Of a DNA stretch of 64,000 bases, positions 45,427 through 64,000 are shown in pieces. A program made the translations under genes and the position numbers. The notes beneath the pieces were generated by a model, which was given only the letters and a program-made list of their open reading frames with translations, did no database searches and was not told the origin of the DNA. The first letter of the stretch is position 1, and each line of letters begins with the position of its first letter. This stretch comes from a candidate division FCPU426 bacterium (GTDB taxonomy: Bacteria > Oederibacteriota > Muellerivitia > Muellerivitales > Muellerivitaceae). Location: NCBI GenBank assembly GCA_963771075.1, contig CAVYSE010000004.1:12689-76688 (forward strand), in the 5' to 3' direction.

Positions 45427-45478
45427 CGGCGGCCCGCCCGTTCGGGCCAAAGAGCTATTTGCGGTATGATTAGGGCGT

Positions 45479-48085
45479 ATGTTTCAAACCTTATCTAAAT
45501 CACTCATCCTTCTTTTGGTCCTGGGTTTATTCCTCAGGGCTGACCCGGCTTTATCTCAAATAACCTGCGGCTCGGTCGCGGACCAGCAACTCAATTGGAC
45601 TGAAATGGCCCCCCTGCCAGTGGAGACCAGTTGGGCCGGTTCCGCCGTCCTCAACGGCTTGATCTATGTGGCGGGGGGAGTCAGCCCCGTCAATTTCCCA
45701 GCCACCGACACCCTTTTCGGCTACGATCCCACCGCGAACACCTGGACGACCCTCGCCAACCTCCCCGACAATTTATACGGGCCCGCGGTGGGCGCGGTGA
45801 ACGGCACCCTTTACGTGGCCGGAGGCCTCAACTCGGCCGGGACGACCGTCAATAGCCTTTATGCCTACAACCCCGGCACCAATACCTGGTCCACCCTTCC
45901 CAACATGCCAACTGCCACTTATGACGCAGGATCGGCCGTCATCAACGGCATCTTTTACGTGGCAGGGGGATACGACGGCGCCAGCACAGAAACCTTGCAG
46001 GCCTTTGATCCCGCCACCAATAGCTGGGCCACCCTGGCCCCAGGTCCCGCGGGGATGGTATTTGGGGATGTGTCCGTCATCAATGGCCTGCTTTATAACT
46101 TGGGGAGCCCGGATATCTATGATCCCACCACCAATACCTGGTCCGTTCAAACTTCCCATGGATTCGTATTAACTGGGGACGGTCGTTCTCTGTTGAACGT
46201 AAACGGAATTCTTTACGCGATAGGAGGGGGCTGGGGATCCTACGGAATATTTGCTTTCGACCCCTCGTCCAACACCTGGACCACGCTGACTAACACCCTG
46301 CCTACGAACAGATTGGGTTTAACCGGGGATGTGGTCAACGGCGTGATTTACGAAATCGGGGGAACCGGCCCCGGAACAAGCTTTTCAGCCCTCAACGAGG
46401 CCGCTACGATCACTTGTCTTCTGACTCCCACGCCCTCGTCCACGGCCACCCTCACTTCGACCGGCACCGCCACCCTCACCCCCACCCCCACGGTCACCAG
46501 CACTCCCATGGCCCCTCTCTGCGGGTCCGTCGCCAGCGAAACCCTGAACTGGTCGTCCATGGCGCCCATTCCCATCACCTCCATGTTTTCAGGATCCGAC
46601 GCCATCAACAACGTCATTTACCTCGTGGGGAACTCGTTACCTCTCACGAACGCAGCTTATTCCTATAACACCTCCACGAACACTTGGGCCCCGATCGCCA
46701 GCCTGCCGGGCAATCTCTTCGGCGCGACCGTCAATGCCATCGGCGGCATTCTCTACGTGGCCGGCGGAACCAATGGAGCCTGGATCACCAATCAAGTTTT
46801 AATATATAACCCCGCCACCAATTCCTGGGCCTACAACGGTTTCCTGGCCACATCGACCCAGAACGCGGCTTCGGCCGTGATCGGCAACACCCTTTATGTG
46901 GCCGGGGGATTTGACGGTGTGGACAATACCACCTTGCAGGCCTTTAACGTATCATCGGGCCTCTGGAACATCCTGGCGCCCTTGCCGGTTGGAGTCGCCG
47001 AGGAGGGTGCCGTCGCCCTCAATGGGCTGTTGTACCTGGCGGGGGGCGATACTAGCACCGGAGTGGTTCAAAACACGCTCCAGGTTTACAACCCGGCTAC
47101 CAACTCTTGGAGCACCCTGGCCCCCATGCCGGTTGGGGTTCGTGGCTTATCGCTCGTGACGGTCAGCGGCATCCTTTATGCCATCGGCGGGTTAACGTCC
47201 TCTTCAGGGTCGATCAACACCGTGCAAGCCTACGACCCCAGCACCAATAGCTGGACGATCCTGAGCAACAGCCTTTCTGTCGTGGATTGGGGATTAACCG
47301 GGTCCGTCGTCAACAACGTGATCTATATGATGGGAGGGTTCTCATCCAGCGACAACTACGCCGCCACCATCCTTTGCGTCACCTCCACGCCCACCTATTC
47401 CCCGACCGTCACCCAGACTTTCACGGTTTCCTCCACCCCCACCGGTACACCGACCGGTAGCCCAACGCTCACCGCCTCGGGCACCTCCTCTCCCTCGGCG
47501 ACCTCCACCCCGACGCCGACCCCAACCTTCACCCTCACGGCCACGAATACGGCCACGCCCACATTCACTTCGACCATCACCCCAACCCCGACTTTCACGC
47601 CATCCCCGACGGCGACTGTTACCCCGACCGCGACCCAAACCTTTACCCCATCTTTCACGGCCACTTTCAGCCCTACACCCACCCCAACTTCGACCCTGAC
47701 CCTCACCCCCACGATCACCCCGACCCCCACTTTCACTTCCACTCGAACGATTACCGCCTCTCCCACCCCGACCTTTTCCCCGACCGCGACCTATATCCCC
47801 GACGTCATGTATATTCCCGTGAATGTCTTCAAACCCACCCAGGGACCCCTGACGATCTCCCTTTCCATTCCCATTTCCACGGGTAATGTGACCCTCAACG
47901 TCTACAACACCGCCGGGGAAAGCGTGAAACAGCTCTTGAACCGATATGTCGACGGACCCGCCCATATTTTCGTGAACTGGGACGGCACCAACCAGGAAGG
48001 CGACCGGTGCGCCAGCGGGGTCTATCTCTTTTACCTGACGGAGTCTCTGGAGCGAAAAAGGGCCAAGGTGGTTTTGATCCGATAA
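45479..48085 (+). CDS. Secreted double-Kelch / Thr-Pro / FlgD-Ig protein (paralog 3)
   Basis: Two propellers each starting CGSVA, a long TP linker and the FlgD-Ig tail. Confidence 0.9.
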   Translation: MFQTLSKSLILLLVLGLFLRADPALSQITCGSVADQQLNWTEMAPLPVETSWAGSAVLNGLIYVAGGVSPVNFPATDTLFGYDPTANTWTTLANLPDNLYGPAVGAVNGTLYVAGGLNSAGTTVNSLYAYNPGTNTWSTLPNMPTATYDAGSAVINGIFYVAGGYDGASTETLQAFDPATNSWATLAPGPAGMVFGDVSVINGLLYNLGSPDIYDPTTNTWSVQTSHGFVLTGDGRSLLNVNGILYAIGGGWGSYGIFAFDPSSNTWTTLTNTLPTNRLGLTGDVVNGVIYEIGGTGPGTSFSALNEAATITCLLTPTPSSTATLTSTGTATLTPTPTVTSTPMAPLCGSVASETLNWSSMAPIPITSMFSGSDAINNVIYLVGNSLPLTNAAYSYNTSTNTWAPIASLPGNLFGATVNAIGGILYVAGGTNGAWITNQVLIYNPATNSWAYNGFLATSTQNAASAVIGNTLYVAGGFDGVDNTTLQAFNVSSGLWNILAPLPVGVAEEGAVALNGLLYLAGGDTSTGVVQNTLQVYNPATNSWSTLAPMPVGVRGLSLVTVSGILYAIGGLTSSSGSINTVQAYDPSTNSWTILSNSLSVVDWGLTGSVVNNVIYMMGGFSSSDNYAATILCVTSTPTYSPTVTQTFTVSSTPTGTPTGSPTLTASGTSSPSATSTPTPTPTFTLTATNTATPTFTSTITPTPTFTPSPTATVTPTATQTFTPSFTATFSPTPTPTSTLTLTPTITPTPTFTSTRTITASPTPTFSPTATYIPDVMYIPVNVFKPTQGPLTISLSIPISTGNVTLNVYNTAGESVKQLLNRYVDGPAHIFVNWDGTNQEGDRCASGVYLFYLTESLERKRAKVVLIR

Positions 48086-50086: not shown

Positions 50087-50641
50087 GTGGCCAGCCCCGT
50101 TTCTCATCGGGGACAATCGCTTTCGGAGTTTTCACTAATTGTTCCCGTTTTATTTTTGCTCTTCTTCGCCTTAATCCAGGTGACTTATACAGCTTTTGCG
50201 GCCTTTTCAGTTCAGAGAGCCGCTTTTGCCATTGCACGCGAAGCAGCCGCTTCGAGCGATCCCAATTCTTATAATCCCTATTTTCAATTGGCTTATTGCC
50301 TCTCACCCTTAAGCCAAATCAGCCCGACCACAATGGCAACCGTTTTATCAACACGATGTGGCATTACTTACAACAGCGACACGGACGATTACGTCCAGGT
50401 TAGCGTGACCTATCCAATGCCCATCTGGATTCCTTTGGCCGGGAAAATATTCGGCCAGCCTTTTCAAGTATCATCAGCCCTTCGTTCCCCAATGGAAAGT
50501 ACATTGGAATTTGTTTTCGAATCCCTGGGTAAACCCAAACCCGACTTCTCGTTCAAACAGTTTTCTTTCCCCCATGTGCAAATGCTCACCTTCAAAGCCG
50601 AAGCTTTATGCGAAAATTCCGTCGGATACCAAAAGGAATAA
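50087..50641 (+). CDS. tadE: TadE-like pseudopilin
   Basis: RG|QSLSEFSLIVPVLF...AFAIAREAA; VQVSVTYPMP. Confidence 0.8.
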   Translation: MASPVSHRGQSLSEFSLIVPVLFLLFFALIQVTYTAFAAFSVQRAAFAIAREAAASSDPNSYNPYFQLAYCLSPLSQISPTTMATVLSTRCGITYNSDTDDYVQVSVTYPMPIWIPLAGKIFGQPFQVSSALRSPMESTLEFVFESLGKPKPDFSFKQFSFPHVQMLTFKAEALCENSVGYQKE

Positions 50642-50642
50642 T

Positions 50643-51872
50643 GTGCGACGTTTACAACGTTGGTCCACCACTCCCACCGGTCAGGTTTTGGTCGCAACCG
50701 TGTTTTTTTGCTTTATTTTCGCAGCTCTATTTATCGGGGTTTATAAATCGGGACTTCTGTATAACTCCAAGGGACGGGCAGTCCGAGCCACCGATTTGAC
50801 CAGTCTTTCAGGCGGGGCCGTTTATGCCAATGGAATGCAATTGGTCCGGTTGACCAATGTCCTCTTGACGGGTTTTCTTGCAATCGATCTTTTAATTTTA
50901 CTTGGTTCCATGGAGTTGACCGGAGGTTTGGCCAATTTCGTCTTACCCAAAATGCCTTTAACAAAGTTCGCGCAAACGGTTCAAAAAATACTTTTCGGAG
51001 TCGGTCTTCCAACCGGGGCCTATCCCTTCATGATCTTCATGGAAGCCAATCAATGTTCCAGAGATAACCAACTTACGAATAATTGGCCGGGTTTGACTTC
51101 CTGGGCCGTTCCAATTCCTCCCTCTCCTATCTTCCTATTTAACTTTGAAGGCTCCCTCACCCAAGCGTTTATTCCCAATATGGCCCTGAAATTCAGAACC
51201 CTTGATTATTTTGTTTTCAAATTACCCAAGGATGAGAAACCATCCCGGTATTACTACCGTGAAAAAAAAACCGGGATAATCCACTACTACAATGCCGATG
51301 AAGTGGTAGATGCGCGCAATCCAAGATACCCGGACCAAAAAAAAGTGAAAGTGGGCAATCGCTGGAAATGGGTCGGGTTAGAGGAAGAAGGTGAAAAAGC
51401 GGCTCAAGCCAATGAATTAACCATGGGTAAAGAAACGCAACAAGCTCTCCAAAAGGGTGAAAAAACCTTGGGGGCGGAGGCCAATAAAGAAGAAAAAGGG
51501 GTTTTTCAAGAATTTAAGGATAAAATCCCGTTTTTCGAGATGTTTAAACAAATCCCCATTGATGTTACCGACCGGGATGACCCTCCCGATCATACTTTCT
51601 TAGTCTATTCTTCCTTTCCTGGCACATCCACCGGTTTACTCGGTACCACCAACTCATTGCAATGTGTCAGCGAAACATCGGTGGAAGGGTCGGGGTTGGA
51701 CGCAACCAAGATTAACGACCCTCCCTACAGCGCCAAATTAAAACCCGCCGATACCTCCACGATAGCCAAATTTCTCAATGTTCAGACGATGGTAACTAAT
51801 TTGGCCAAAACGAACCAGCTGCCCAGTATCAACGATATGTTCAGCCTTTCCGGAATGGGGTCGTCCAAATGA
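50643..51872 (+). CDS. TadG-like pilus accessory protein
   Basis: TG|QVLV followed by a TM segment, then ATDLTSLSGG; GTG start inferred. Confidence 0.65.
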   Translation: MRRLQRWSTTPTGQVLVATVFFCFIFAALFIGVYKSGLLYNSKGRAVRATDLTSLSGGAVYANGMQLVRLTNVLLTGFLAIDLLILLGSMELTGGLANFVLPKMPLTKFAQTVQKILFGVGLPTGAYPFMIFMEANQCSRDNQLTNNWPGLTSWAVPIPPSPIFLFNFEGSLTQAFIPNMALKFRTLDYFVFKLPKDEKPSRYYYREKKTGIIHYYNADEVVDARNPRYPDQKKVKVGNRWKWVGLEEEGEKAAQANELTMGKETQQALQKGEKTLGAEANKEEKGVFQEFKDKIPFFEMFKQIPIDVTDRDDPPDHTFLVYSSFPGTSTGLLGTTNSLQCVSETSVEGSGLDATKINDPPYSAKLKPADTSTIAKFLNVQTMVTNLAKTNQLPSINDMFSLSGMGSSK

Positions 51873-52348
51873 CTAACCCCATATCCCAAATGGCCCAAGC
51901 CTTAACCGAAATGATTCTCGTGATTCCCATGCTTTGCCTGATGGGGGCTGGGCTTATTCAATTCACGCAAATATTTCTGGCCAAAAACGCATTCGATCAG
52001 GCTTGCGGACTCGCGGCCAGGGACTATGCCGCCAGCGAGATTGACGATACCCAATTTATTCAGGACGCCTGGGAAAATCTAGGCGAGGATCAACGCTACT
52101 TTATTCCCGGTTCCCTTCAAACCGAAAGCTTTACCGCGAACCCCTCCTTCATTGATCTCCTGACTAAAAACTTCAGCGTCCTTGGACCGGTCTTCTCGAA
52201 ATTGAAATCCGTAGTATCTAATTATTCCGGAAAGAATTGGCGAGTTTCCATTCAATTCAAGGGACCACCCTTTTTTGGGGTCTTATTCCCCGGCGGTTTA
52301 ACCTTTCAAACTCAATTGGCCGTTTTGAAATATCCGGAGGTGCCCTAA
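51869..52348 (+). CDS. TadE/TadF-like pseudopilin
   Basis: A|QALTEMILVIP...ACGLAAR. Confidence 0.8.
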   Translation: MTNPISQMAQALTEMILVIPMLCLMGAGLIQFTQIFLAKNAFDQACGLAARDYAASEIDDTQFIQDAWENLGEDQRYFIPGSLQTESFTANPSFIDLLTKNFSVLGPVFSKLKSVVSNYSGKNWRVSIQFKGPPFFGVLFPGGLTFQTQLAVLKYPEVP

Positions 52349-52350
52349 CC

Positions 52351-53088
52351 ATGAAAAACAAATGGTTTTGGGGGACCTTGTTGTTTTGGGCCATATTTTC
52401 TATTGCCATCATGGGCCGTGCCTTAATATTTTCCACTTTGCGGTTTGATCCAAAAATCATCAGCCAGTACGAAATTAAAACGAATGGCCTGACCCAATCC
52501 CATCGACTTTGGATGAATGAAGGCGATTTGGTGGATTTACTTCCCCTCATCAACGACCGCTTGCGCCGGGAAGGCTGGAACTCCTGCGCGGGAGGAATCG
52601 ACATGGTTCCCGACTTTCTTCAACTGGATGGCCTGGTTCCGGACATTTCCGAAAAACTTCAGATCAAAATGTTTCAAAAACCGGGATTTCACCTTGCCAT
52701 GGGACTTCTTCAACCTTCGGGAGAGTCCCTAACTTACGGCTGGGAGGGGATCTTACCCGATCGAATTCTTTCTTTAGATCAAGAACTCAAAGCTTGGAAT
52801 TTCCATTTTCCTGTGCCACCCGACGCTTCTCACTTAATTAACGAAAAACTGGCTAATCTTCAGATCGGCATGGTTATCCTCCCCCACCAACAAGGTTTGA
52901 CCCGCCGGTTTCTCAATCTCTGTCAGCAAGGCAACTGGGAAGCTTCGGAATGGAATAGCGGGACAGAATACCCAACTTTCTTTCTCACTCGAAAAGGTGA
53001 AAAACTCATGGCTGTTTTAAATCAACAAACTTCGCAAGATGTCATCACACTTCTTAACTTCATAAATCGAAAGGCCTTTTATGAATAA
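52351..53088 (+). CDS. Hypothetical membrane-anchored protein in the tad operon
   Basis: GGAGG RBS, N-terminal TM segment, tightly coupled to its neighbours. Confidence 0.7.
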   Translation: MKNKWFWGTLLFWAIFSIAIMGRALIFSTLRFDPKIISQYEIKTNGLTQSHRLWMNEGDLVDLLPLINDRLRREGWNSCAGGIDMVPDFLQLDGLVPDISEKLQIKMFQKPGFHLAMGLLQPSGESLTYGWEGILPDRILSLDQELKAWNFHFPVPPDASHLINEKLANLQIGMVILPHQQGLTRRFLNLCQQGNWEASEWNSGTEYPTFFLTRKGEKLMAVLNQQTSQDVITLLNFINRKAFYE

Positions 53089-53839
53089 ACGAATAGTTAT
53101 ACCCATGGGGTTAGGCATTCTATTCAGCCTGATCGCTTTTGCGTTTCTCTATCAGAAAGCATCTGATCTTGAGAAAAAAACCACCCTGGTTCCCGTATTG
53201 TTTTCTAAAACTTATATTTATCCAGGACAATTTTTATCCGCCAATTTAGTCGAAGCCAAATCAATCCCAGGAGAATATGTCAGCCCCAGTGCCATCATGG
53301 ATATCAAGGATGTACAAGGAGAAGCCGCGCTGGCACCCATTTCCGCCGGAGAACAAATTCTTTCAAACAAATTCGCTCCGCCAGATGCGTCCCTAGCTTG
53401 GTCCCTCAAATCCGGCCAAAGGGCCTTTACCCTGGAAGTCAACGAAGCCAGTGGGGTCGGAAACATGATACGTCCGGGAAATCATGTGGATATTCTGGTA
53501 AAACTAGCTTCCGGAAATCGAATCGTTACTTCCTTTGTTTTTCAAGATCTATACGTTTTGGCCACAGGCCAAAGGATCACCAAATCCAAGAACCTTTCAG
53601 ATTCTTCAGCCGATAACGCCACCAATTACAACACGGTCACCTTAGCCTTGACAGCCGATCAAGCCGAAACATTGATGTACCTGGAGGGTCAAAATTTAAA
53701 ACTAGTCCTCAGGTCAAACAATGATGATGAAACAGTAGATCTTCCTCCCATAACCGATACTGAGGCGTTGGCGAAAATCGGGCACTTTCAACACAAGGAA
53801 GGTCGGTCGCTGCAAGTTATACAAGGAGAATCAAGGTAG
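53081..53839 (+). CDS. cpaB: Flp pilus assembly protein CpaB/RcpC
   Basis: SAF domain, GQRAFTLEV, GVGNMIRPGNHVDI, VLATGQ and TVTLALT. Confidence 0.93.
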   Translation: MNKRIVIPMGLGILFSLIAFAFLYQKASDLEKKTTLVPVLFSKTYIYPGQFLSANLVEAKSIPGEYVSPSAIMDIKDVQGEAALAPISAGEQILSNKFAPPDASLAWSLKSGQRAFTLEVNEASGVGNMIRPGNHVDILVKLASGNRIVTSFVFQDLYVLATGQRITKSKNLSDSSADNATNYNTVTLALTADQAETLMYLEGQNLKLVLRSNNDDETVDLPPITDTEALAKIGHFQHKEGRSLQVIQGESR

Positions 53840-53867
53840 GTTTAAATCATTTTCGATGGAGGCCTTT

Positions 53868-54878
53868 ATGAATTTCCGACTTCAATTTTTATTCGCGTTA
53901 GTCCTGATCATGTCTGGAATCGCTTGGGGAGAAAATCAGGATATTCATCTCACCGTGGGAGAATCAAAACTACTTCACTTGGATTCCGCTCAAAAAATTG
54001 CCATTGCCAATCCATCGGTCGCCAGTGTCACTCCTGTGAGTGATGATGAAATCTTAATATCAGCGAAATCGCCTGGAAGTACAAACCTGGTTCTCATTTC
54101 TCCCGATGGCAGCAAGGAAACACGGCAAATTTTCGTGGCCAGTCACAATCTCAAGAAAGCCATGGTTGAAATAAACGTGGAAGTAATGGAAATTGACTAT
54201 CAAAGCTCCCTGATGGCAGGTTTAAGCTGGGGATCCGTCACCTCTCAAGGCGGAGGTGGTACATCTGGGTCATCCACTATCCCCAATAATTTAACTCTGA
54301 ATGAAGGAACCCCACCTTCCGTCTTTAATTTCGGAACAGTAACCAGGGACGCTTTGACAGCCAGCCTCCAATTGTTGGTAAACCGGGGAAAAGCCAAGGT
54401 TCTGGCTAAGCCTAAACTTCTGGCAGTTAGTGGCTCAGAAGCCAGTTTCTTATCGGGTGGCGAGGTTCCCTGTACTGTGGACACAAAGTTGGGTTCAGTG
54501 GATGTGCAATGGAAGCCTTATGGCGTTAAATTGAACGTTCGGCCTGAAATCGACGCGGAAGGTAACATCACCTCTTCCCTGAGGGCCGAAGTCAGCAGCA
54601 TTGACACGCAAAACGGATTGTCGATTAACAATACGGTCATACCAGCCCTCAAAACCAGATGGGCCGAAACGACAGTCTATATGAAGAGTGGAAGCACTAT
54701 GGTGATTGCAGGTCTTATCTCCGAGCAAAACCAAAAGCTCACTTCGGGAATCCCGCTGTTAAGTGATATCCCCTTGTTGGGAGAGCTATTCCGATCGACC
54801 AATGATCAAATGTCCCAATCCGAGCTCGTCATTTTCGTAACGCCCACACTCTTCGGACAAACCGAATCCTCTACCTGA
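53868..54878 (+). CDS. cpaC: Tad secretin CpaC/RcpA
   Basis: IAIANPSVA, LAKPKLLAVSGSEASFLSGGEVP, GIPLLSDIPLLGELFRS and ELVIFVTP. Confidence 0.92.
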   Translation: MNFRLQFLFALVLIMSGIAWGENQDIHLTVGESKLLHLDSAQKIAIANPSVASVTPVSDDEILISAKSPGSTNLVLISPDGSKETRQIFVASHNLKKAMVEINVEVMEIDYQSSLMAGLSWGSVTSQGGGGTSGSSTIPNNLTLNEGTPPSVFNFGTVTRDALTASLQLLVNRGKAKVLAKPKLLAVSGSEASFLSGGEVPCTVDTKLGSVDVQWKPYGVKLNVRPEIDAEGNITSSLRAEVSSIDTQNGLSINNTVIPALKTRWAETTVYMKSGSTMVIAGLISEQNQKLTSGIPLLSDIPLLGELFRSTNDQMSQSELVIFVTPTLFGQTESST

Positions 54879-54879
54879 C

Positions 54880-55344
54880 CTAATCCACCGGCGTGGGAGC
54901 TTCCTTCAGCCCTTCCACCACATCCCCGGCCTTCAGGCCGTTCTGGTCGAACCAGCTCTTGTTCATTTCCAGAGCGTACTTGGCCGGCCCGGCGGAGGGG
55001 AAGGTATCCTCCGTATAGGGGGGCATCTCCAGGATATTCTCGATCTTCCCCTGGTCGTCCATGAAGGCGATGCTCAAGGGGATTTGCGTATTCTTCATCC
55101 AAAAATACCTTTGGGTGTCATCGGAAAACACGAACAACATGCCATGGTCCCGGGGCATGCTGGCGCGGAACATCAGCCCCGCCATGCGGGTGGCTTCCTT
55201 GTTCGCCACCTCGACTTCGATGGTCTTTTGGCGCAGGGTCAACTTGGCGACCGGCAGGTCGGACTTGATCTCCTGCTTGCAACCGGCCAGGTCCACCACC
55301 AGTAGTACGGCGAACATAAACCAAACGCGGGTGTTTCGCCCCAT
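54880..55344 (-). CDS. DUF192 family lipoprotein
   Basis: LAGC lipobox, GLMFR, GMLFVF, FWMKNT and YALEM. Confidence 0.93.
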   Translation of the reverse strand: MGRNTRVWFMFAVLLVVDLAGCKQEIKSDLPVAKLTLRQKTIEVEVANKEATRMAGLMFRASMPRDHGMLFVFSDDTQRYFWMKNTQIPLSIAFMDDQGKIENILEMPPYTEDTFPSAGPAKYALEMNKSWFDQNGLKAGDVVEGLKEAPTPVD

Positions 55345-55380
55345 TACGAAAGCCCCTTTCGAACCGAAAATTGATTTAAA

Positions 55381-55410
55381 TTGACGCTTTTTGAAGCCTT
55401 GTCGTAAAAT
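55381..55410 (+). promoter_or_regulatory. Sigma70 promoter, probably giving a leaderless mRNA
   Basis: TTGACG-N18-TAAAAT, 6 nt before the ATG at 55417, with no SD sequence. Confidence 0.6.
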
Positions 55411-55416
55411 TAACAC

Positions 55417-56397
55417 ATGAGAAAAACACTTGGTTTTTTCCTCGTTCTCACCTTAGCACAAAGCCTTTCGCCCTTCCATGCCACAGCCGCTGGTCCGACC
55501 GAAGCCCAGCTCAAGACCGCCTACAATTACGCCGATAAGCTTTACGCCGCCCACCGTTTCCAGGACGCCCGCGACATCTTCAAGAAGATCGCCATGGCCA
55601 GCACCGACCCCAACCTGGACGCCAACGCCTTCTATTATTACGCCCAGTGCGCCTTTCACACCGAGGATTACGACGCCTGCGTCAAGGCCTTGGATATCCT
55701 GGTGCAGAAATACCCCAACTCCACCCCCGTTTCCGGCGGGTATGTTTTTAAGTTCTGCTATTTCCTCATCAACCAGGTCGTCCACATCCAATCCAAATGG
55801 GACTATTTCCGTTATCCCGAGGGCAAGGATGACAAGGGCGAGGTGGTCTGGAAAGAAAGTGTTCCCCCCGGCTACAAGATCAAGCGCATCAATTTCCGCC
55901 TGGGCTTTGGCCTCTACCGCGTCCTCAACCGGGTCTACTCAACTGCGCCCCAAACCGCAAAATGCAAGGCGGCCTTGGAAGCCATGCTCAAGACGCCCCT
56001 GACCATCAAGTGGGTGGATGAGAAGGCCCCGCCCGACCAATGGTTCCACCCCACCGATTTCATTTCCCTTTTTTCCATCACGGAGAAAAAGGCCTTTTCC
56101 AAGTTCATTTGCGACCGCATGTTCTACAACTGGAAGACCGAGAAACTGTACCTGTTCCTCGAGATGCACGACGACATCCGCAACCTGAAACCCCGTTTCA
56201 TTGCCATGACCAAAAACCTCGCCGATCCCGACGACGCCCCGCAGGTCGCTTCCGCCAACGGCGGGACTGCCTCGGATTACCAGGACCCCTACTACACCCT
56301 GACCCTGGAAAAGCTCTTCAACGCCACCGGTTATAACCCCTACGAGGACAGCTTCAAGAGCGTTATCGAATCCAGCCCCTCCGATCTGACGCTCTAA
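55417..56397 (+). CDS. Secreted TPR-containing protein
   Basis: Signal peptide; TPR-like YNYADKLY...AFYYYAQCAF...LVQKYPNS. Confidence 0.75.
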   Translation: MRKTLGFFLVLTLAQSLSPFHATAAGPTEAQLKTAYNYADKLYAAHRFQDARDIFKKIAMASTDPNLDANAFYYYAQCAFHTEDYDACVKALDILVQKYPNSTPVSGGYVFKFCYFLINQVVHIQSKWDYFRYPEGKDDKGEVVWKESVPPGYKIKRINFRLGFGLYRVLNRVYSTAPQTAKCKAALEAMLKTPLTIKWVDEKAPPDQWFHPTDFISLFSITEKKAFSKFICDRMFYNWKTEKLYLFLEMHDDIRNLKPRFIAMTKNLADPDDAPQVASANGGTASDYQDPYYTLTLEKLFNATGYNPYEDSFKSVIESSPSDLTL

Positions 56398-56400
56398 ACC

Positions 56401-56814
56401 ATGTTCCCCTTTAAGTCTTTCTCCCTTTGGTTCTTTTTGGTTTCTCTTTCGGTTTGTTCCACTCCCCTGTGCGCTAACTCGTCGAAGGACGAGGCCTCCG
56501 CGGACACGAACAGTTCTTCCGGGCCCTCGACCGCGGCAAGTTCGGATTCAATCCAACCCGATATTCCCCAAATCCAGCCCAAGGGCCAATCCTACACAAA
56601 GGCCCTGGTCATCCATAAACACATGCCCGACCCCGCTTGGGGAAAGATGCTCCAATACAAGAGCGATAACTCGGTGGATCCAAACACCAAGATGAAGGAA
56701 ACGGTCTATAGTTTCGTGTTTCAAGATGAGAAGGGTATTATCCGCGTCGCCAACTATCACGAGCACGAGGATGGCGAGGGTTATTGGGAAGTCTTTATAT
56801 GGGACCTGCCGTAA
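56401..56814 (+). CDS. Secreted hypothetical protein
   Basis: Signal peptide and Ser-rich linker. Confidence 0.65.
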   Translation: MFPFKSFSLWFFLVSLSVCSTPLCANSSKDEASADTNSSSGPSTAASSDSIQPDIPQIQPKGQSYTKALVIHKHMPDPAWGKMLQYKSDNSVDPNTKMKETVYSFVFQDEKGIIRVANYHEHEDGEGYWEVFIWDLP

Positions 56815-58841
56815 ATAAAACTTCGTTCATCATCGGATGGGTCGGCGCCAAGGGCGGTAACGGAACTTCCACCCTTTGCTCCCTGGCCGCGCGCCTATGG
56901 GCCCAACAGGCGGGATTACGCCTGGGGATCATCGATGCCCAGCCTCCTTCCTATTCTTCCCTTCCCGGCCTGCTTGGCATACCCCCCGCAACACGTCCTC
57001 TTTCGCAGTTGGCCCCCTATTTCGACCGGCTCACCCCCAAGGTTCTGGATAACGCCTTTCCCCGTTCCCCCGAGGGCGTCTTCTACATCCCGTTAAGGTT
57101 GAACGACGAACCCGGTTTCGACTTGAAAAAAGAAATCCTTTCCCTCCAGGCCATCCGGAGCCATTTCGACGCCCTTTGGATCGACCTTTCCGCCCTTCCA
57201 CCCGACCAGGCCTTGGCCCTGGCGGACGGGATGGACGCCTGCCTTTTGGTTTGCGCGCAAGATCCCTCGTCCCTCGCCGCCCTCGCGGCTTGGGAGAAAA
57301 GGATCCTGGCCCAGCACTTGGACCTGGCCCGTTATCATTTGGTGCTCAACCAGAACCGTCCGGGCTCTTCCATTAACCTGGAGGGCCTGCCCATCCCCCA
57401 AGGTTTTTCACGCATCGGCGCGGCGCCCTACCTTGGCGATAACCTAAGCCTCGCCCTCTGGGAAACCAAGGGCCTGCCGCCCTTGTTGGAAAAGCCCCTC
57501 ACGATCCTAACGGAACTGATCACTGGTTTTCATCGGTCCCTCAACCCGCTCGGGGCTTCTCCCGCGCCGGGAAAAATCGGCGGGGCGGAAGATCCCATCG
57601 AGATGGAAGAAATCCATCATTTCCACATGGGCCTGCTTGAACAACTACGGCGCCAGGGCTTGATGGAGGAAGGAAAGTCCGCCGGGGACCTGCGTGGCCG
57701 ACTGGAGCCGAGGGCCAGGGAAATCCTAAGCCAGCTTTTATCCGAACTTCCCCACCGTTCCCGGGAGACCCGCCAAAAGCTTATGGAGGAAGTTTTAGAC
57801 CTGGCCTTCGGCCTGGGCCCCCTCGAACACCTAATCCAAAATGAGGAGATCACCGAAATCATGGTGAACGGCCCTAACCGGGTCTATGTGGAAAAAAAGG
57901 GCCTTTTGGAGCTTACCGACGCCCGTTTCATGGACGAACTGCAATTGCGCACCGTCATCGAGCGCATTTTGGCGCCCATCGGCCGCCGCATAGACGAGAG
58001 CCAGCCCTACGTGGACGGGAGGCTTTTCGACGGGTCCCGCATCAACGCGGTGATCCCTCCCTTGAGCCTGAACGGGCCGACCCTGACCATCCGAAAGTTC
58101 TCCAAGAAGAAACTGGTCGTGGATGATTTGATCAAGTTCGGCTCCCTCTCCAGGGAAGCCGCAGACTTTTTGGGCGCCTGTGTAAGGGCCCGGAAGAACA
58201 TAGTCGTCTCCGGGGGAACCGGCTCGGGCAAGACCACCCTCTTGAACGTGCTGTCGAATTTCATACCGGAAACCGAGCGCATCGTGACGATAGAGGATTC
58301 GGCGGAATTGAAGCTGTCCCAGGACCACGTGGTCAGGTTGGAGGGCCGCCCCGCAAACCTGGAGGGCAAGGGACAGGTCAGCATCCGTGATCTGGTCATC
58401 AACGCCCTTCGAATGAGGCCGGACCGCATCGTGGTGGGCGAGGTTCGTGGGGCGGAGGCCCTGGATATGCTCCAGGCGATGAACACCGGACATGATGGTT
58501 CCCTCACCACGGGACATGCCAACAGTCCAAGGGATATCCTCTCCCGGCTGGAAACCATGTGCCTCTTCGCCGGACTGGACCTGCCCCTCAAGGCCATCAG
58601 GGAGCAGATCGCCCGGGCGGTGCATCTGGTGGTCCAGCAAAGCCGCCTGCCGGGCGGGAAAAGGTCGGTCACCCACATCACGGCCCTGCAGGGCATGGAG
58701 GGGGATGTGGTCATGCTTCAGGACCTGTTCACCTATACAGAAAGCAAGGGTTTGGAAAGGGGCAACTTCGCCCCCGCCTTCATTGAGGACCTCAACCGCA
58801 TCGGTTACCATTGGCCTGGGCACGGGGGCCAAAAGTCCTGA
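56799..58841 (+). CDS. cpaF: Fused CpaE/TadZ-like domain and CpaF/TadA pilus ATPase
   Basis: N-terminal deviant Walker A GAKGGNGTST; C-terminal GLGPLE, EIMVNG, GGTGSGKTT, IEDSAEL, LRMRPDRIVVGEVRG and MNTGHDGS. Confidence 0.92.
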   Translation: MGPAVNKTSFIIGWVGAKGGNGTSTLCSLAARLWAQQAGLRLGIIDAQPPSYSSLPGLLGIPPATRPLSQLAPYFDRLTPKVLDNAFPRSPEGVFYIPLRLNDEPGFDLKKEILSLQAIRSHFDALWIDLSALPPDQALALADGMDACLLVCAQDPSSLAALAAWEKRILAQHLDLARYHLVLNQNRPGSSINLEGLPIPQGFSRIGAAPYLGDNLSLALWETKGLPPLLEKPLTILTELITGFHRSLNPLGASPAPGKIGGAEDPIEMEEIHHFHMGLLEQLRRQGLMEEGKSAGDLRGRLEPRAREILSQLLSELPHRSRETRQKLMEEVLDLAFGLGPLEHLIQNEEITEIMVNGPNRVYVEKKGLLELTDARFMDELQLRTVIERILAPIGRRIDESQPYVDGRLFDGSRINAVIPPLSLNGPTLTIRKFSKKKLVVDDLIKFGSLSREAADFLGACVRARKNIVVSGGTGSGKTTLLNVLSNFIPETERIVTIEDSAELKLSQDHVVRLEGRPANLEGKGQVSIRDLVINALRMRPDRIVVGEVRGAEALDMLQAMNTGHDGSLTTGHANSPRDILSRLETMCLFAGLDLPLKAIREQIARAVHLVVQQSRLPGGKRSVTHITALQGMEGDVVMLQDLFTYTESKGLERGNFAPAFIEDLNRIGYHWPGHGGQKS

Positions 58842-58875: not shown

Positions 58876-59625
58876 TTGATTTCAAACCATTTGTTGGGCC
58901 AATGGAAAGAAGATGAAAAGGCGCCGTTCTCAGGATGGGATTTTTCCCGGTTAAAGGACCGTTGGGAAGAAGAGATGCCTCCTTGGGACTACATCCGGAT
59001 GGCCAAAAGGCTTGTGCCCGGTTCCACCGCCCTATTGGATATGGCCACGGGGGGCGGTGAGATATTCGCGACTTTAGCCCCCTTCCCTGCTTCGACTTTC
59101 GCCATCGAAGGCCACCCGCCAAATGTTCCTATTGCCCAAAAACTCCTTTCGCCTTTGGGGGTAAAAGTCCTATTGGCGCCAGAGACAAAGCCTTTGCCTT
59201 TCGACAATGAATCCTTTGATCTCGTATTAAACCGCCATGGGGGTACCAACCCGCCGGAAATCAGCCGTATATTGAAAAAAGAAGGGCGCTTCATGACCCA
59301 GCAAGTCGCGGGTGACAGCCTAAGCGGCCTGATGTCGGTGTTCGGCGCTAAACCCAAATGGCCGGATCATACATTTGCAAATGCATTCGTGAATTTTCAA
59401 AAGGCGGGTTTTGAAATCCTTGAAAGCTGTGAATGGACCGGCACCCGGCATTTTTACGACGTCGGGGCCGTGGTTTATTTTCTCAAGGCCGTTCCTTGGC
59501 TCGTTGACGAATTCAGCGTGGATAAGTTCCTCAAGGAATTGGAAATACTGCAGGGGAAAATAGAAGCGGAAGGGGTTTTGCGCTTCTCGGAAAGCCGATT
59601 CCAGTTTTTGGCCAAAAAGAAATAA
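58876..59625 (+). CDS. Class I SAM-dependent methyltransferase
   Basis: TTG start after GGAGG; FSGWDFS, LLDMATGGGE, LPFDNESFDLVLNRH and TQQV. Confidence 0.88.
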   Translation: MISNHLLGQWKEDEKAPFSGWDFSRLKDRWEEEMPPWDYIRMAKRLVPGSTALLDMATGGGEIFATLAPFPASTFAIEGHPPNVPIAQKLLSPLGVKVLLAPETKPLPFDNESFDLVLNRHGGTNPPEISRILKKEGRFMTQQVAGDSLSGLMSVFGAKPKWPDHTFANAFVNFQKAGFEILESCEWTGTRHFYDVGAVVYFLKAVPWLVDEFSVDKFLKELEILQGKIEAEGVLRFSESRFQFLAKKK

Positions 59626-59643: not shown

Positions 59644-59671
59644 TGTCCACGACGGGGACCCATCGTGGACA
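59644..59671 (+). repeat. 28-bp palindromic repeat, copy 1
   Basis: TGTCCACGACGGGGACCCATCGTGGACA. Confidence 0.95.
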
Positions 59672-59694: not shown

Positions 59695-60351
59695 ATGAGC
59701 AAATTACGCATTAACTGTTTAGGATTATCCCTTGATGGATACGGAGCGGGACCTAACCAGAGCCTTGATAACCCCCTAGGGGTTCGAGGCCCGGAGCTGA
59801 TGGGTTGGTTCTTTCCCACGCGGACATTTAAAATGATGCACGGCGACGGCAAGGATGGAACCATCGGTCTGGATGAAACTTACGCCAAACAGAGCATGGA
59901 AAACGTCGGCGCATGGATATTGGGCCGCAACATGTTCGGCCCCATCCGCGGCGCGTGGCCGGATGAATCGTGGAGGGGCTGGTGGGGTGAGAACCCTCCC
60001 TATCATGTGCCCGTTTTTGTCCTGACCCATCACCCCCGAAAATCCATAAAAATGGAGGGGGACACCACCTTTCATTTTGTGACGGAAGGCTATGAAACCG
60101 CGCTGAAGCAAGCAAGGGAGGCCGCCGGGAAGAAAGACATCCGCCTTGGCGGCGGGGTTAATACTATTCGCCAATACCTTAACGCCAAGCTTATCGATGA
60201 GATGCACTTGGCCATGTCCCCAGTCTTGTTAGGTTCGGGCGAACATCTATTGTCAGGTATAGACCTCCCGGCTCTTGGATATCAGGTCGCTAAACACGAA
60301 GCATCTGAGGCGACGACCCATATAACCATTGTTCGTAGTCAAACCAAATGA
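59695..60351 (+). CDS. Dihydrofolate reductase / RibD C-terminal family protein
   Basis: SLDGYGAG, ILGRNMF, PVFVLTH, GGGVNT and LIDEMHL. Confidence 0.93.
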   Translation: MSKLRINCLGLSLDGYGAGPNQSLDNPLGVRGPELMGWFFPTRTFKMMHGDGKDGTIGLDETYAKQSMENVGAWILGRNMFGPIRGAWPDESWRGWWGENPPYHVPVFVLTHHPRKSIKMEGDTTFHFVTEGYETALKQAREAAGKKDIRLGGGVNTIRQYLNAKLIDEMHLAMSPVLLGSGEHLLSGIDLPALGYQVAKHEASEATTHITIVRSQTK

Positions 60352-60410: not shown

Positions 60411-60438
60411 TGTCCACGAAGGGGACCCATCGTGGACA
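60411..60438 (+). repeat. 28-bp palindromic repeat, copy 2
   Basis: TGTCCACGAAGGGGACCCATCGTGGACA. Confidence 0.95.
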
Positions 60439-60495: not shown

Positions 60496-60717
60496 TTGAA
60501 ACACTATCAAGTCGTTTTTGTCTGTTCTTTTTTGTGTGTATTGCTTCTTACTTCTGGTTGGCTAATAACTTTAATTAAAGACAAAACTAAACACAAAGTA
60601 TGGGAGAAGAGTTGGGGCCTTTATATACTTGTTCTTATTTCGGGTACTCTTTTTATCGCTGGCGTTTGGGAAGGTGTAATCGACACTACTGGATGGTGGG
60701 GGCCAGGGATTGGTTGA
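60496..60717 (+). CDS. Small AT-rich membrane protein (2 TM)
   Basis: TTG start after GAGG; fills the interval between repeat copies 2 and 3. Confidence 0.6.
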   Translation: MKHYQVVFVCSFLCVLLLTSGWLITLIKDKTKHKVWEKSWGLYILVLISGTLFIAGVWEGVIDTTGWWGPGIG

Positions 60718-60735: not shown

Positions 60736-60763
60736 AGTCCACGACGGGGACCCATTGTGGACA
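60736..60763 (+). repeat. 28-bp palindromic repeat, copy 3
   Basis: AGTCCACGACGGGGACCCATTGTGGACA. Confidence 0.93.
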
Positions 60764-60791: not shown

Positions 60792-61010
60792 TTATAAGTT
60801 ATTGAATTCTTCTATGCTCAAACCAGCTTGTTTTAAAAGCTTCTTCAATAACCCCTCGCCCAATTCTCTGTGCTGAGGAATGGACAATGTCCACAAATAG
60901 CCATCTTTCACCATCATGACGTGGGAACCTTTTTGACGGGCAACAGACCAACCGGCTTTTTGAAAATTTTTAACGGTTTGGGAACCGGAACAAAGCTTGA
61001 GGTGGGGCAC
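60792..61010 (-). CDS. hicA: HicA family toxin
   Basis: GWSVARQKGSHVMM, IPQH and GLLKKLLKQAGLSIEEF. Confidence 0.93.
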   Translation of the reverse strand: MPHLKLCSGSQTVKNFQKAGWSVARQKGSHVMMVKDGYLWTLSIPQHRELGEGLLKKLLKQAGLSIEEFNNL

Positions 61011-61210
61011 TAGACATTAACCGAGACCAACTTGCTCTTATGAATCCGTTGTTTGGATTCCATGACTTCCATCCAACCCTCAATGGCCTCATGGATATTC
61101 TTCACGGCTTCCTTGCGGGTCTTGCCTTGGGAAAGGCACCCCGGTAAAGCCGGAACTTCGGCCACGTAATAACCTGAATTATCTTTTTCGAGAGTAATGT
61201 GAAATTTCAT
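61010..61210 (-). CDS. hicB: HicB family antitoxin (short form, no DNA-binding domain)
   Basis: YVAEVPALPGCLSQGKTRKEAVKNIHEAI. Confidence 0.93.
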   Translation of the reverse strand: MKFHITLEKDNSGYYVAEVPALPGCLSQGKTRKEAVKNIHEAIEGWMEVMESKQRIHKSKLVSVNV

Positions 61211-61316: not shown

Positions 61317-61344
61317 TGTCCACGAAGGGGACCCGTCGTGGACA
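61317..61344 (+). repeat. 28-bp palindromic repeat, copy 4
   Basis: TGTCCACGAAGGGGACCCGTCGTGGACA. Confidence 0.95.
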
Positions 61345-61371: not shown

Positions 61372-61989
61372 TTGAAAAATAAAACCAAAATCAGTCTTAT
61401 TATGAAAATTTTAAATTTTAGTTCTTATCCGAAAAAATTTCTTTGGTTTATTGCAGGATTAGTTTTTATATTGGATTTGAACGCCTTGATCTCTATGGCT
61501 GTCTTTCAAATAGTTTCTAAAAATAAATTCTTAGGCATTTCAATATTTTTCTCCGCCCTGCTGTCCGTGATAGGAGCCTATCTTTTTCGCATCCCCATAT
61601 TGAATAAAATATTGAGCAAAACACGGGGAATCGATTTTAAGCGGAAAAATAAAAAGCCGCTTCTCTGGGGGCTTACTACTCAAATTTATATAGGACTTGG
61701 AATATTTTTGGGTTTGGTTGTTATTGTTTTCATGGCTCTAGTGAAAGATATTGATGTTATTGATCCAATTGTTTATGTCGCTATTGTTTTGATCAGTTCA
61801 GGGGTTCTCTACTTTTGTTTTCTTCTGTTGAGGGATTCTTTTAATAAGTTCCATTACAAAGGATGGAAAAAAACTAAGAAATTTTCTCCATTGCGAAAAG
61901 TTTGGGTGGCATCCATGTTCTTTTCTTGGGGTACACTTGCCGGGATATTCATTGGTTGGGTGATATCGGCAATCGTGTTTCTGATTTAA
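61372..61989 (+). CDS. AT-rich multi-pass membrane hypothetical protein
   Basis: About 5 TM segments; start at 61372 or 61402. Confidence 0.65.
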   Translation: MKNKTKISLIMKILNFSSYPKKFLWFIAGLVFILDLNALISMAVFQIVSKNKFLGISIFFSALLSVIGAYLFRIPILNKILSKTRGIDFKRKNKKPLLWGLTTQIYIGLGIFLGLVVIVFMALVKDIDVIDPIVYVAIVLISSGVLYFCFLLLRDSFNKFHYKGWKKTKKFSPLRKVWVASMFFSWGTLAGIFIGWVISAIVFLI

Positions 61990-62004
61990 AAATAGATTTT
62001 ACCT

Positions 62005-63972
62005 GCAGAGTAGAGCGCTGGCGCGTATGCCTTAGAGTACGGTGGCGAATCCAACCCTTTCGGATTGGGCCTCAGTCCGGCTCTCATCACCACGTTTCCA
62101 GCGCCCCCTCATCAAACCGTACGTGACCTTTTCGATCATACGGCTTTCCGACAACCTTTCAACCGGCAGCATTCAAGGCAAAAGCTGGAATCCAGTTCAA
62201 ACCAAGGCGTTTCACTTCCTCGATCGACCATGTTCGTCCTTCCCAGGCGTACTTATGCCTCCGAAACAAAGTCAGCCTTTCGAGTACGTAAAATTGAAGC
62301 TTGGAAAAGTATGGCTGGCTGTCCCCAATTCGGAAATAGTTGGCCCACCCCCTTAACACCGGGTTCAAAGCCTTCGCTACATCCTCCATTGGAGATAAGA
62401 GCCGCTCTCGGCCCGCCGTCATCTGCTTCACTTTCTCGGCGATTTTCTTCATGGCCTTCCGGCTCGGCCAGCTCAGGCAACAGGTCTTACCCAATCCTAC
62501 CACCGGCATACCTACTCGAAAGTGGAACCCAAGGAAGTCAAACCCTTCCTTCCCAGGCCCCATTTCCACCAGCCGTGTCTTTTCGGGGTGCAGTTCAAGC
62601 CCTAGTCGTCCCATCAATTCCTTGATGACTTCCAGGCTCTTTTCCGCATGGGCTTGGCTTCCGCACAACACCACAAAATCGTCGGCGTAGCGCACCAGCC
62701 TACCCAGTTTCCTGTGCCTCTTATTCCAAACCTTGTCCAGCAAGTGAAGGTAAACATTGGATAACAGCGGTGAGATCACCCCGCCTTGCGGTGTCCCTCG
62801 GAGAGTCGGCGTAAGCCTTCCTTCCTCAAACACACCCGCCTTCAGCCACCCTCGGATCAGTTTCAAAACCTTCCGGTCACTGATCCTCTGGCGCACCAGC
62901 ACCATCAGTTTGTCGTGGTCGATGGAATCGAAATACTTCCGAATATCTCCATCCACCACCCATCTGTACCCGCCATTGATCCACTTCTTGATCTCCCGGT
63001 GGGCCTGCTGGGCTCCGCGTTTTGGCCGAAATCCAAACGAGCCTTCCAGAAAGTCCGCCTCAAAGATGGGTTCCACCACCTTCCGGCAAGCCGCTTGAAC
63101 TACCCGATCCCGAATTACCGGGATTCCCAACGGTCTCTTGCTTCCATCAGGCTTGGGTATTTCCACTCGTCTCACAGGTTTAGGCAGATACTTCCCAGCT
63201 TTGAGTTCTTCCTGGATGCCCTTCAGGAATGGAATAATTCCCACCTTCTCTTCGATCCATTCCAGCGTTTCCCCGTCCACTCCTCCTTGGCCTTTATTAG
63301 CCTTCACCTGTTTCCATGCCGCTGTCAGGACATCCCATCGGGTCATCCTGTCATGCAGTACATGAAATCTCCGGCTTGGGCTCCTCTTGGCCGCTCGGTA
63401 TAGCGCCCTTTGAAGGGTTCGCGCCTTGTCTTCGGAGTTGTTGGCCCTTTGGGGCATGCTCCAGCGCCTCCCTTTTGAAGGTTGCTTGGTTGAAGCAGGG
63501 GTCCTTCCCTCCAGGTGGTTTTGTTGTCCACCCTTCACAGGTATTGTGACCCCCTCCGACTTCCTCCCGCCCTTGCCCCTTTTCGGTTTTAGCCTTATAG
63601 CGGCAAGTCTTTTGGGGGAGGATCCCAGGTTGCTTGCAAAGCCTTTCCAGCATTCCGTTCCCCATACGCCGGAGGACTTGCCCCGCTTGCTCCAGATTCT
63701 TCAGCGGGATCGTGGCCTTCGCCGGTAGACACGCGGCTCGGCATCCTCTTGCACCTTTCGGTGTCCCATTCACGACGCGGCAGGATTCACTTGATGTTGC
63801 GGACTGCTAGATTGTTCCTCACTGAATGAGGTTTATGACCCCGTTTCGGGCAGAACCTCTCGGTCCTACGCCGGGGGCTGGCACAGCTCTCTGGCGATTA
63901 CTGGTCAGGATTTGGGCTGGCCCTCTTCGGCCTACTCCCTCACCTGCTGGCTCTACAAACCTTCGCTGGCAC
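62005..63972 (-). mobile_element. Group II intron (about 1.97 kb, IIB-like, no En domain)
   Basis: 5' end GTGCCAGCG at 63972; domain V AAGCCGTATGATCGAAAAGGTCACGTACGGTTT after the ORF stop; domain VI GGGGCGCTGG...CCAGCGCTCTACTCTGC ending near 62005. Confidence 0.9.
62159..63457 (-). CDS. ltrA: Group II intron reverse transcriptase/maturase
   Basis: RPLGIPVIRDRVVQ, SFGFRP, DIRKYFD, GTPQGGVISPLL, YADD, FDFLGF, X domain LNPVLRGWANYF; no HNH domain. Confidence 0.97.
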   Translation of the reverse strand: MPQRANNSEDKARTLQRALYRAAKRSPSRRFHVLHDRMTRWDVLTAAWKQVKANKGQGGVDGETLEWIEEKVGIIPFLKGIQEELKAGKYLPKPVRRVEIPKPDGSKRPLGIPVIRDRVVQAACRKVVEPIFEADFLEGSFGFRPKRGAQQAHREIKKWINGGYRWVVDGDIRKYFDSIDHDKLMVLVRQRISDRKVLKLIRGWLKAGVFEEGRLTPTLRGTPQGGVISPLLSNVYLHLLDKVWNKRHRKLGRLVRYADDFVVLCGSQAHAEKSLEVIKELMGRLGLELHPEKTRLVEMGPGKEGFDFLGFHFRVGMPVVGLGKTCCLSWPSRKAMKKIAEKVKQMTAGRERLLSPMEDVAKALNPVLRGWANYFRIGDSQPYFSKLQFYVLERLTLFRRHKYAWEGRTWSIEEVKRLGLNWIPAFALNAAG

Positions 63973-63974
63973 GA

Positions 63975-64000
63975 TGTCCACGAAGGGTCCCCGTCGTGGA
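63975..64000 (-). repeat. 28-bp palindromic repeat, copy 5 (inverted, cut by the window edge)
   Basis: Reverse complement reads TCCACGACGGGGACCCTTCGTGGACA. Confidence 0.93.

Follow-up and report, generated by a model that had tools for sequence, protein, structure and literature searches.

What brings a group II intron to lie directly against the arm of a palindromic repeat is the question raised by the right end of a 64,000-nucleotide stretch of DNA (the window; positions 12,689 to 76,688 of contig CAVYSE010000004.1, assembly GCA_963771075.1) from a candidate division FCPU426 bacterium of the family Muellerivitaceae. A first-pass annotation of the sequence had proposed that this intron carries an exon-binding site 1 (EBS1) fitted to the repeat. 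Here, we report an analysis of the intron (intron A), its genomic copies, its relatives, and the repeat. Intron A likely retrohomes to the repeat edge (probability, roughly 0.8) through pairing of EBS1 and EBS2 with about 12 bases of the arm. Recognition of a hairpin is likely unneeded for targeting, because about 12 bp of pairing nearly confine the target to the repeat.

Intron A and its junctions

Intron A occupies window positions 63974 to 62005 on the minus strand (5′-UCGUG ... UGC-3′; 1970 nt here, 1979 nt in nine other full copies), and the right end of the window is the end of contig C4 (C4:76688) of a 4.39-Mb genome. That a group II intron adjoins the arm of repeat copy 5, as first annotated, was borne out by a match of the ribozyme core to Rfam RF00029 (62148-62005; 43.4 bits, cut-off 40) and of the reverse transcriptase (RT)/maturase to TIGR04416 (422.9 bits, cut-off 300). 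The RT/maturase open reading frame (ORF; 62159-63457, minus strand, 432 amino acids [aa]) has a YADD motif and RVT_1 and GIIM domains, with no endonuclease domain found by Pfam. The full-length domain V (62114-62146) carries an AGC triad and a 5-nt loop, and domain VI (62008-62110) is long (about 100 nt), with a bulged A at 62011, the seventh base from the 3′ end.

Ten full copies of intron A are present in the genome, along with an ORF-less variant of about 790 nt (contig C2) and a 5′ portion lying at the contig C26 end. The RT is identical across the ten full copies, which suggests recent mobility as far as sequence identity can tell. Indels in domain I set the window copy apart from the nine other full copies, and repeat copy 5 points the opposite way to copies 1 to 4; the last few hundred bases of the window may thus hold assembly errors (contig-end indels, inverted copy 5).

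The repeat is a 28-bp palindrome with 13-bp arms around a fixed, nonpalindromic GA and with ends TGTCCAC..GTGGACA. A search with its profile gave 100 genomic copies, against 0 when the genome was reversed; copy 5, which the contig end truncates (63975-64000, minus strand), comes on top of these. The 12 independent 5′ junctions of intron A in the genome all lie directly after an arm of this palindrome, 8 in the orientation of the repeat consensus and 4 in reverse. An inverted duplicate of the array and the 5′ part of the intron at the C26 end (G000:C26:140537-143720), probably an assembly artefact, was kept out of the 12. Apart from this duplicate, all 11 genomic 3′ flanks and all upstream flanks differ. 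The 3′ exon (61990-62004, minus strand) starts with A, as at all 11 genomic 3′ junctions.

The annotation had put the 5′ end 1 to 2 nt after the arm, at GTGCC, which proved wrong. N-T-C follows 11 of 11 occupied arms and 2 of 189 empty arms (100 scored repeats), the base preceding TC varies (one copy has G as its last exon base), and the 5′ motifs of homologues (GUGCG, UUGCG, and GCGUG) align base for base with UCGUG; T and C therefore belong to the intron, which starts with the noncanonical UCGUG (63974-63970), two bases earlier. The same alignment rules out a 2-nt 5′ extension before GUGCC. A contig in public run X4 starts at the same T and matches the 1979-nt unit throughout, and new upstream flanks were seen in public contigs from runs X1 and X2. 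Since the intron starts directly after the last palindrome base, the 28-bp palindrome is left intact. The empty allele predicted earlier was off by 1 to 2 nt; in corrected form, GTGGACA is followed directly by AGGTAAAATC.

The first base, U1, covaries with the penultimate G: among relatives, copies starting with U end in GC and copies starting with G end in AC, with 0 mixed among 16 junctions with both ends read. An interaction of the first and penultimate bases is known in group II introns (PMC4238363), and intron UHB.I2 has the ends UUGCG..GU (PMC7923331; papers cited by PMC number are drawn on here in excerpt).

Pairing and target choice

The GCCG/CGGC stem of domain I described in the first-pass annotation, with loop CGUGUCUAC, is present (Id3 stem-loop, 63737-63721, minus strand). 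Equivalent loops were compared among homologues (98 loci, of which 88 had an equivalent loop, 69 of these a unique motif-defined 5′ end, and 68 were distinct), with covariation read from 42 rows to limit redundancy; two rows with probable wrong 5′ picks (L057 and L067) were excluded from the covariation, EBS2, and arm analyses and are included in the figures for 68 homologues. Loop positions 3 to 9 paired with exon positions −1 to −7 at 80.5% across the 68 homologues, against 51% with shuffled exons (maximum, 58% in 2000 shuffles) and 32 to 44% in shifted registers; for loops not reading CAU (n = 32), pairing was 91.5% (51% shuffled). In the 42 rows, the top covarying partner of each exon position from −1 to −7 is its loop column. 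The loop rule also places the 5′ end of Rh.sp.I1 at 25058, in agreement with Table S2 of PMC3552965 as excerpted. The Id3 loop is EBS1, and pairing and covariation in homologues uphold its match to the repeat. The duplex, first given as 8 bp with two wobbles, is actually 7 bp with one G-U wobble (UGUCUAC, 63731-63725, with intron-binding site 1 [IBS1] GTGGACA, 63981-63975).

The second loop base (G, 63732) pairs with an upstream intron base in all 42 rows and is Watson-Crick complementary to intron base 1 in 1.5% of the 68 homologues. This pairing, which covaries, makes it delta, with delta-prime at 63779 (C; 100% complementary in the 42 rows). The 8-bp register including T was excluded, loop base 2 being delta and the T belonging to the intron.

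EBS2, overlooked in the annotation, is AUGGG (63769-63765), upstream of the Id3 stem; it pairs with CCCRT of the repeat at −13 to −9, with four of five bases pairing in the window copy (IBS2 CCCTT, 63987-63983). Of 33 non-CAU homologues, 61% formed a duplex of at least 5 bp; shuffles gave 27% (maximum, 45%). Compensatory EBS2/IBS2 pairs were found in relatives (L113, L153, L114, and L115), namely ACACC/GGTGT (85% RT identity), AAAGGG/CCCTTT (93%), and GAGAGG/CCTCTC (73%); one subclade (L131, L132, L151, and L154 to L156) has only 4 contiguous EBS2 pairs, in a shifted register. The proposal that specificity comes from EBS1 holds for EBS1 itself, although not for EBS1 alone, since EBS2 also contributes.

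In the genome, only 60 of 269 sites of the type GTGGACA followed by A fall in listed repeats, against 12 of 12 junctions at the repeat, and the relaxed form (GTRGACR followed by A) does so in 71 of 553 cases, so that IBS1 plus the +1 A lacks specificity. Requiring an occupied-type IBS1, the A, and at least 4 Watson-Crick EBS2 pairs leaves 86 sites: 64 in listed repeats (12 occupied), 15 in ORFs, and 7 other, most of them unlisted repeat variants. Pairing therefore nearly accounts for the insertion pattern. Among sites with IBS1 and A and poor EBS2 pairing, 1 of 368 lies in a repeat, and 0 are occupied. The annotation had also held that either arm of most copies is a potential homing site; both arms are indeed used, yet “most copies” was too strong, as 35 of the 100 repeats are targetable at both arms, 36 at the left only, 5 at the right only, and 24 at neither.

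Close relatives of intron A, whose 5′ exons the annotation had suggested checking, sit at the same base of the repeat in six other family genomes. RTs of 67 to 98% identity occur in genomes G027, G011, and G004, and the intron 5′ region matches 7 of 30 other family genomes. Of 33 distinct relative junctions, 22 match the repeat with no more than 8 mismatches, and a further 3 are at degenerate copies. ORF-less forms (773 to 801 nt) occur in G027, G008, G011, and G020.

In the mechanism we propose, the excised RNA and the endonuclease-free RT would reverse-splice into a single-stranded arm, probably at a replication fork, and the inserted intron RNA would then be copied into DNA. Insertion after the last base would keep the palindrome intact and spare genes, opening a large, family-wide supply of harmless sites. 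If the repeat is a recombination site, the inserted intron would travel with the neighboring cassette. The locally G-rich strand carries 10 of the 12 introns (p = 0.019), which hints weakly at homing linked to the fork.

Several points weigh against homing by EBS pairing as just described. When wobbles are allowed in scoring EBS2, listed repeats contain 69 sites, 12 of them occupied, and 82 sites remain elsewhere, every one empty. Of the 82, 60 are in ORFs, where purifying selection could hide insertions, but the hairpin or bound proteins may also assist targeting. Right arms with the +1 A are occupied in 7 of 21 cases and left arms in 4 of 48 (p = 0.027), a bias that pairing does not explain. 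The GC-skew test behind the strand bias is local and confounded by gene orientation. EBS3 was not located by covariation, with only 3 usable 3′ ends. Eight of the 33 relative junctions lie outside a full repeat (3 arm-only and 5 unrelated); 4 of the 5 unrelated ones belong to two variants with different EBS (one in G004 at 73% identity, one in G027 at 68%). Finally, no spliced or empty junction was seen among the joints of public runs X1, X2, X4, and X16, which are contigs only, so that this is no evidence of absence; run X16, an RNA library, covers only pieces of the intron, with DNA carry-over possible.

Some of these points are what would be expected if the intron needed an extruded hairpin, or a recombinase-bound or single-stranded site, beyond EBS pairing. 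Such a need would fit the 0 of 82 looser outside sites occupied and the right-arm bias, and folding is strong at most occupied sites (z about −4 to −5.5). Four Paenibacillus homologues that are not of class C (L045, L065, L066, and L068) insert after terminator-like hairpins, their EBS2 A-run pairing with the T-tract. We nevertheless regard this requirement as improbable. A covarying EBS2 is present, whereas IIC introns have a stem-loop in its place (PMC1702495, in the part drawn on); IBS1 and IBS2 are inside the stem, so that a folded hairpin would compete with pairing; and there are occupied sites without a fold (L113 and one L145 site) or with a single arm (in all, L113, L145, L168, and L216).

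That the pattern reflects survival, with insertion at many 7- to 8-nt matches of which the intergenic repeat copies survive, or else a single insertion spread by cassette shuffling, would suit the 60 of 82 loose outside sites in ORFs and the apparent exchange of cassettes at the repeat, but is highly improbable given the differing flanks on both sides (the C26 duplicate excepted), the two orientations, the poor-EBS2 counts above (1 of 368 in a repeat, 0 occupied), and an EBS2 that follows repeat sub-variants in relatives.

The repeat and its cassette arrays

Repeat copies form co-oriented clusters with about one copy per small gene or operon. Twenty fetched array stretches gave 215 representative ORFs; among the 212 scanned, toxin-antitoxin pairs (PIN, ParE, HigB, BrnT, and PemK) are numerous, alongside acetyltransferases and orphans. 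The repeat pattern was found in 27 of 30 other family genomes and in the 1 sister-family genome, with 0 of 29 others of the phylum; viral contigs gave 0 exact matches.

In the window, four empty copies (plus strand; 59644-59671 [28 bp, 13+2+13], 60411-60438, 60736-60763, and 61317-61344) follow a methyltransferase gene (58897-59625, plus strand; PF08241) that ends just before copy 1. Between and after them lie a gene with a RibD C-terminal/DHFR-like domain (59695-60351, plus strand; PF01872), an ORF of 73 aa with no Pfam family (60496-60717, plus strand), a hicB-hicA toxin-antitoxin pair antisense to the array (60792-61210, minus strand), and a hydrophobic ORF of 205 aa with no Pfam match (61372-61989, plus strand), whose stop is 15 nt before the intron 3′ end. 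Directly upstream of the array, a Tad/Flp pilus-like cluster (50087-58841) ends in a 685-aa ATPase with a T2SSE domain; further upstream (44100-47950), long coding repeats with periods of about 140 nt and Thr/Pro-type tracts are, by inspection, probably surface proteins with Kelch-like repeats.

No integron integrase (IntI) was found: the best TIGR02249 score was 41.8 bits (cut-off, 265) in a genome 96.7% complete. A tyrosine recombinase or IntI as the array enzyme was rejected, as there are 8 Phage_integrase matches, 0 inside the 20 fetched array stretches and 0 over the IntI cut-off. Integron attC sites have RYYYAAC..GTTRRRY ends, a length of about 57 bp or more, and extrahelical bases. The repeat is unlike attC in its ends and its 28-bp length, a comparison with these general attC features rather than with an attC model.

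A serine recombinase of 277 aa, with catalytic and recombinase domains and without a zinc ribbon, is encoded by a gene that ends 19 nt before the terminal repeat, facing the array. The repeat lies within about 80 nt after 10 of 10 short recombinase genes in 7 genomes (9 by pattern, 1 by eye; two recombinase loci were cut by contig ends) and after 0 of 7 longer or more distant recombinase relatives. Ten repeat pairs share one flank only, with differences mostly in the opposite half, as exchange near the center would give. Symmetric site, 2-bp asymmetric center, and linked recombinase gene are together those of a serine-recombinase site-specific system. We lean towards the repeat being the recombination site of an integron-like cassette system, likely served by the short serine recombinase, as judged from sequence; homing does not require this reading. 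Against it, a search with this query detected the short recombinase in just 6 of 30 other family genomes and gave no match in several repeat-rich ones. One such gene (L011:3003-3836; G000:C8) and 5′-truncated copies of it (L009, L010, and L018) each close an array convergently.

The repeat could instead be an intron-made or transposase-made element similar to repetitive extragenic palindromic (REP) sequences, with no recombination and with arrays arising otherwise. The short hairpin and the missing recombinase of some repeat-rich genomes would agree with this, as would the 20 Y1 transposase matches in the genome, most of them far from arrays and a few inside. We consider it rather unlikely, since copies are co-oriented at about one per small gene or operon, have 13+2+13 symmetry with a fixed asymmetric center, form one-flank-shared pairs that differ mostly in the opposite half, and follow the short recombinase genes (10 of 10) and not the long or distant ones (0 of 7). 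It bears on the repeat and not on the homing mechanism.

The repeat is also entered by a second intron, intron B (38 to 42% RT identity to A; FADD), which nests with B.th.I3 in group g2 (support, 100); A and B as one clade were rejected (p = 3e-6). Intron B inserts inside the repeat, between GTCCACGAYG and GGGACCC, with a loop complementary to CACGACG. This centre insertion was found in 8 of 10 G027 copies with the 5′ junction read and in one copy each from G020 and G021; in G001, a relative has a different EBS1 and a different target. Two G027 repeats carry both introns, and the source genome has a truncated intron B copy. A 35-nt hairpin with 10-bp arms lies in the center of 13 repeat copies of the source genome (G000), with an apparent GG duplication (e.g., C26:73679, C26:134377, and C5:98233). 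At L007:12976 (run X1), a 14-nt loose end that begins with GTGCG two bases before the arm is complete possibly marks a third intron lineage; a pattern search of 31 family genomes stayed at control level and left this lineage unconfirmed.

Tentatively, the repeat might be the crossover site of a family-wide, integron-like system with a truncated serine recombinase and a niche comparable to attC, onto which at least two unrelated introns and the 35-nt element were independently programmed. The edge intron would spare the site and ride with cassettes, centre insertions would block recombination, and ORF-less edge copies would spread in trans.

Relatives, class, and known systems

Members that target the repeat and members that do not are both present in both subclades of intron A relatives, so that a single gain followed by two escapes is as good an explanation as two separate gains. 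The retargeted variants are L114, L149, and L158 (G004) and L129 and L130 (G027); one is beside a long GC-rich hairpin, and one is in a motif containing AATGACACG. Distant homologues (46 to 57% identity) have other insertion signals. Insertion of homologues at unrelated sequences, which the first-pass annotation would have held against specialization on the repeat, does occur among these distant homologues, yet is no refutation, because EBS1 and EBS2 change with the targets.

Thirty-four distinct CAU-loop homologues (L023 to L100 and L116) are inserted after ATG (29), GTG (4), or TTG (1). In each, a TANNNT box precedes the start codon by a few bases, a count given without a chance control. AUG was picked at the 3′ junction in 28 of them (at least 1 pick is wrong), and several of these open recognizable genes in frame, e.g., MPGTLYLVATPIGNLED in L028. 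This looks like a lineage that would target leaderless start codons and in which the intron itself would provide a new AUG; Michel and co-workers reportedly described start-codon intron lineages in 2007.

Further traces of these introns were seen. At G000:C8:88547, CCGTGCCAGGATCAAG right after a repeat arm is the 5′ scar of another intron A variant (L131 and L154 begin with matching sequence). Two isolated domain VI fragments (G000:C11:337047-337150 and C8:93880-93777), 90% identical to the intron and off the repeat, lie downstream of a duplicated Thr/Pro-rich gene. In L112, L127, and L128 (G027), the same insertion, with a transposase-like ORF, interrupts intron A just before the RT start; domain VI is not the same among close relatives, suggesting that intron variants exchange sequence. 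In L118/L155 (G021:C42), an intron A 5′ end at a repeat is closely followed by a different RT (40% identity), possibly that of a nested intron. In L120 (G002:C23), a cas2-like gene and CRISPR repeats flank an RT-like ORF.

Trees were quick IQ-TREE runs with Shimodaira-Hasegawa-like approximate likelihood ratio (SH-aLRT) support only, with class C represented by two RTs assigned here by their CGC domain V and without core class F (Pe.th.I2, So.us.I2, and Ge.ur.I1) or g4 references. Intron A and its family relatives form a clade (support, 99 to 100) in a wider group with the unclassified Rh.sp.I1 (support, 86 to 90), apart from the g1, g2, g3, D, and C rows. Grouping with class C was rejected (approximately unbiased [AU] test, p = 0.012); grouping with g1 (Rh.js.I1 and Sr.me.I2) appeared in neither tree, although the AU test did not reject it (p = 0.085). 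Intron A differs from g2 in its YADD motif and its place outside the B.th.I3 clade. IIC introns are marked by a CGC triad, a shortened domain V, and an EBS1 of 3 to 4 bp with no EBS2. Intron A differs from them in its 7-bp EBS1, the presence of EBS2, an RT outside class C, and, as first annotated, a full-length domain V with an AGC triad. IIB introns have EBS1-IBS1 and EBS2-IBS2 pairings of about 6 bp each (PMC1702495, in excerpt), which agrees with intron A; its delta-delta-prime pair is inside the intron. A 5-nt domain V loop and a long domain VI are given as class F traits in the part of PMC3753933 drawn on, and intron A has both, with an endonuclease-free RT, as in class F in the wide sense (F and g2 to g4). 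The best label is IIB, class-F-related, and unclassified; of the earlier “IIB, probably class F/g1-like,” the IIB and F-related parts stand, and g1 is unsupported, the RT grouping with Rh.sp.I1.

Three target specificities have been listed for bacterial group II introns, namely ordinary homing sites, terminators, and attC (PMC4424553, in excerpt). Our literature searches found no description of intron A, the 28-bp repeat, or a serine-recombinase cassette array. Cassette sites are already known to harbor introns, namely IIC-attC introns and the single IIB intron UHB.I2.

Integrons and clusters of attC sites lacking integron integrases (CALINs) resemble the arrays in their co-oriented small cassettes, rich in toxin-antitoxin pairs and acetyltransferases, with one palindromic site per cassette. 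Unlike them, the arrays have neither IntI nor attC architecture, and the candidate enzyme is the 277-aa serine recombinase without a zinc-ribbon domain. The target of RmInt1, a class D intron, is an insertion sequence. Like intron A, RmInt1 is endonuclease free, and it homes by EBS-IBS pairing to a multicopy target (PMC4238363, in excerpt), as intron A likely does; the target of intron A is a 28-bp intergenic site and not a transposase gene, and its RT does not fall within the class D clade.

IIC-attC introns (S.ma.I2 and relatives) are likewise endonuclease free and specialized on a palindromic site between cassettes (PMC4424553 and PMC7923331, as excerpted). Intron A differs in that it is not of class C, its site is a 28-bp non-attC palindrome, and no integrase is over cut-off. 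It also inserts in both orientations; the excerpt of PMC7923331 contrasts its own same-orientation intron with IIC-attC. UHB.I2 (IIB1/CL1) is, like intron A, a IIB intron right after a cassette site, with U1 and penultimate G ends; in the same excerpt, it is one metagenomic CL1 copy at a true attC, with poorly conserved exons among homologues. Intron A, in contrast, is multi-copy, multi-genome, and class-F-related, and both its EBS1 and its EBS2 match the site. Class F and F-related introns (Rh.sp.I1, Ni.ha.I1, and B.th.I3; PMC3552965 and PMC3753933, in excerpt) share an endonuclease-free RT, a length of about 1.98 kb, a 5-nt domain V loop, a long domain VI, and EBS1 plus EBS2. Rh.sp.I1 is the nearest named reference in the tree; intron A stands apart from the set by its UCGUG..GC ends, its cassette-repeat target, and its place outside the g2 (FADD) clade and not with the g3 reference.

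Intron A thus combines an ecology like that of IIC-attC introns with an ordinary IIB mechanism, with EBS1 and EBS2 set to a cassette repeat, and a second lineage independently targeted another base of the same repeat. In its relatives, EBS1, EBS2, and the first/penultimate pair show natural compensatory changes, which makes the targeting rules of this little-studied class-F-related lineage directly testable. The introns mark the repeat as old, abundant, and functional, which strengthens the case for a cassette system other than integrons.

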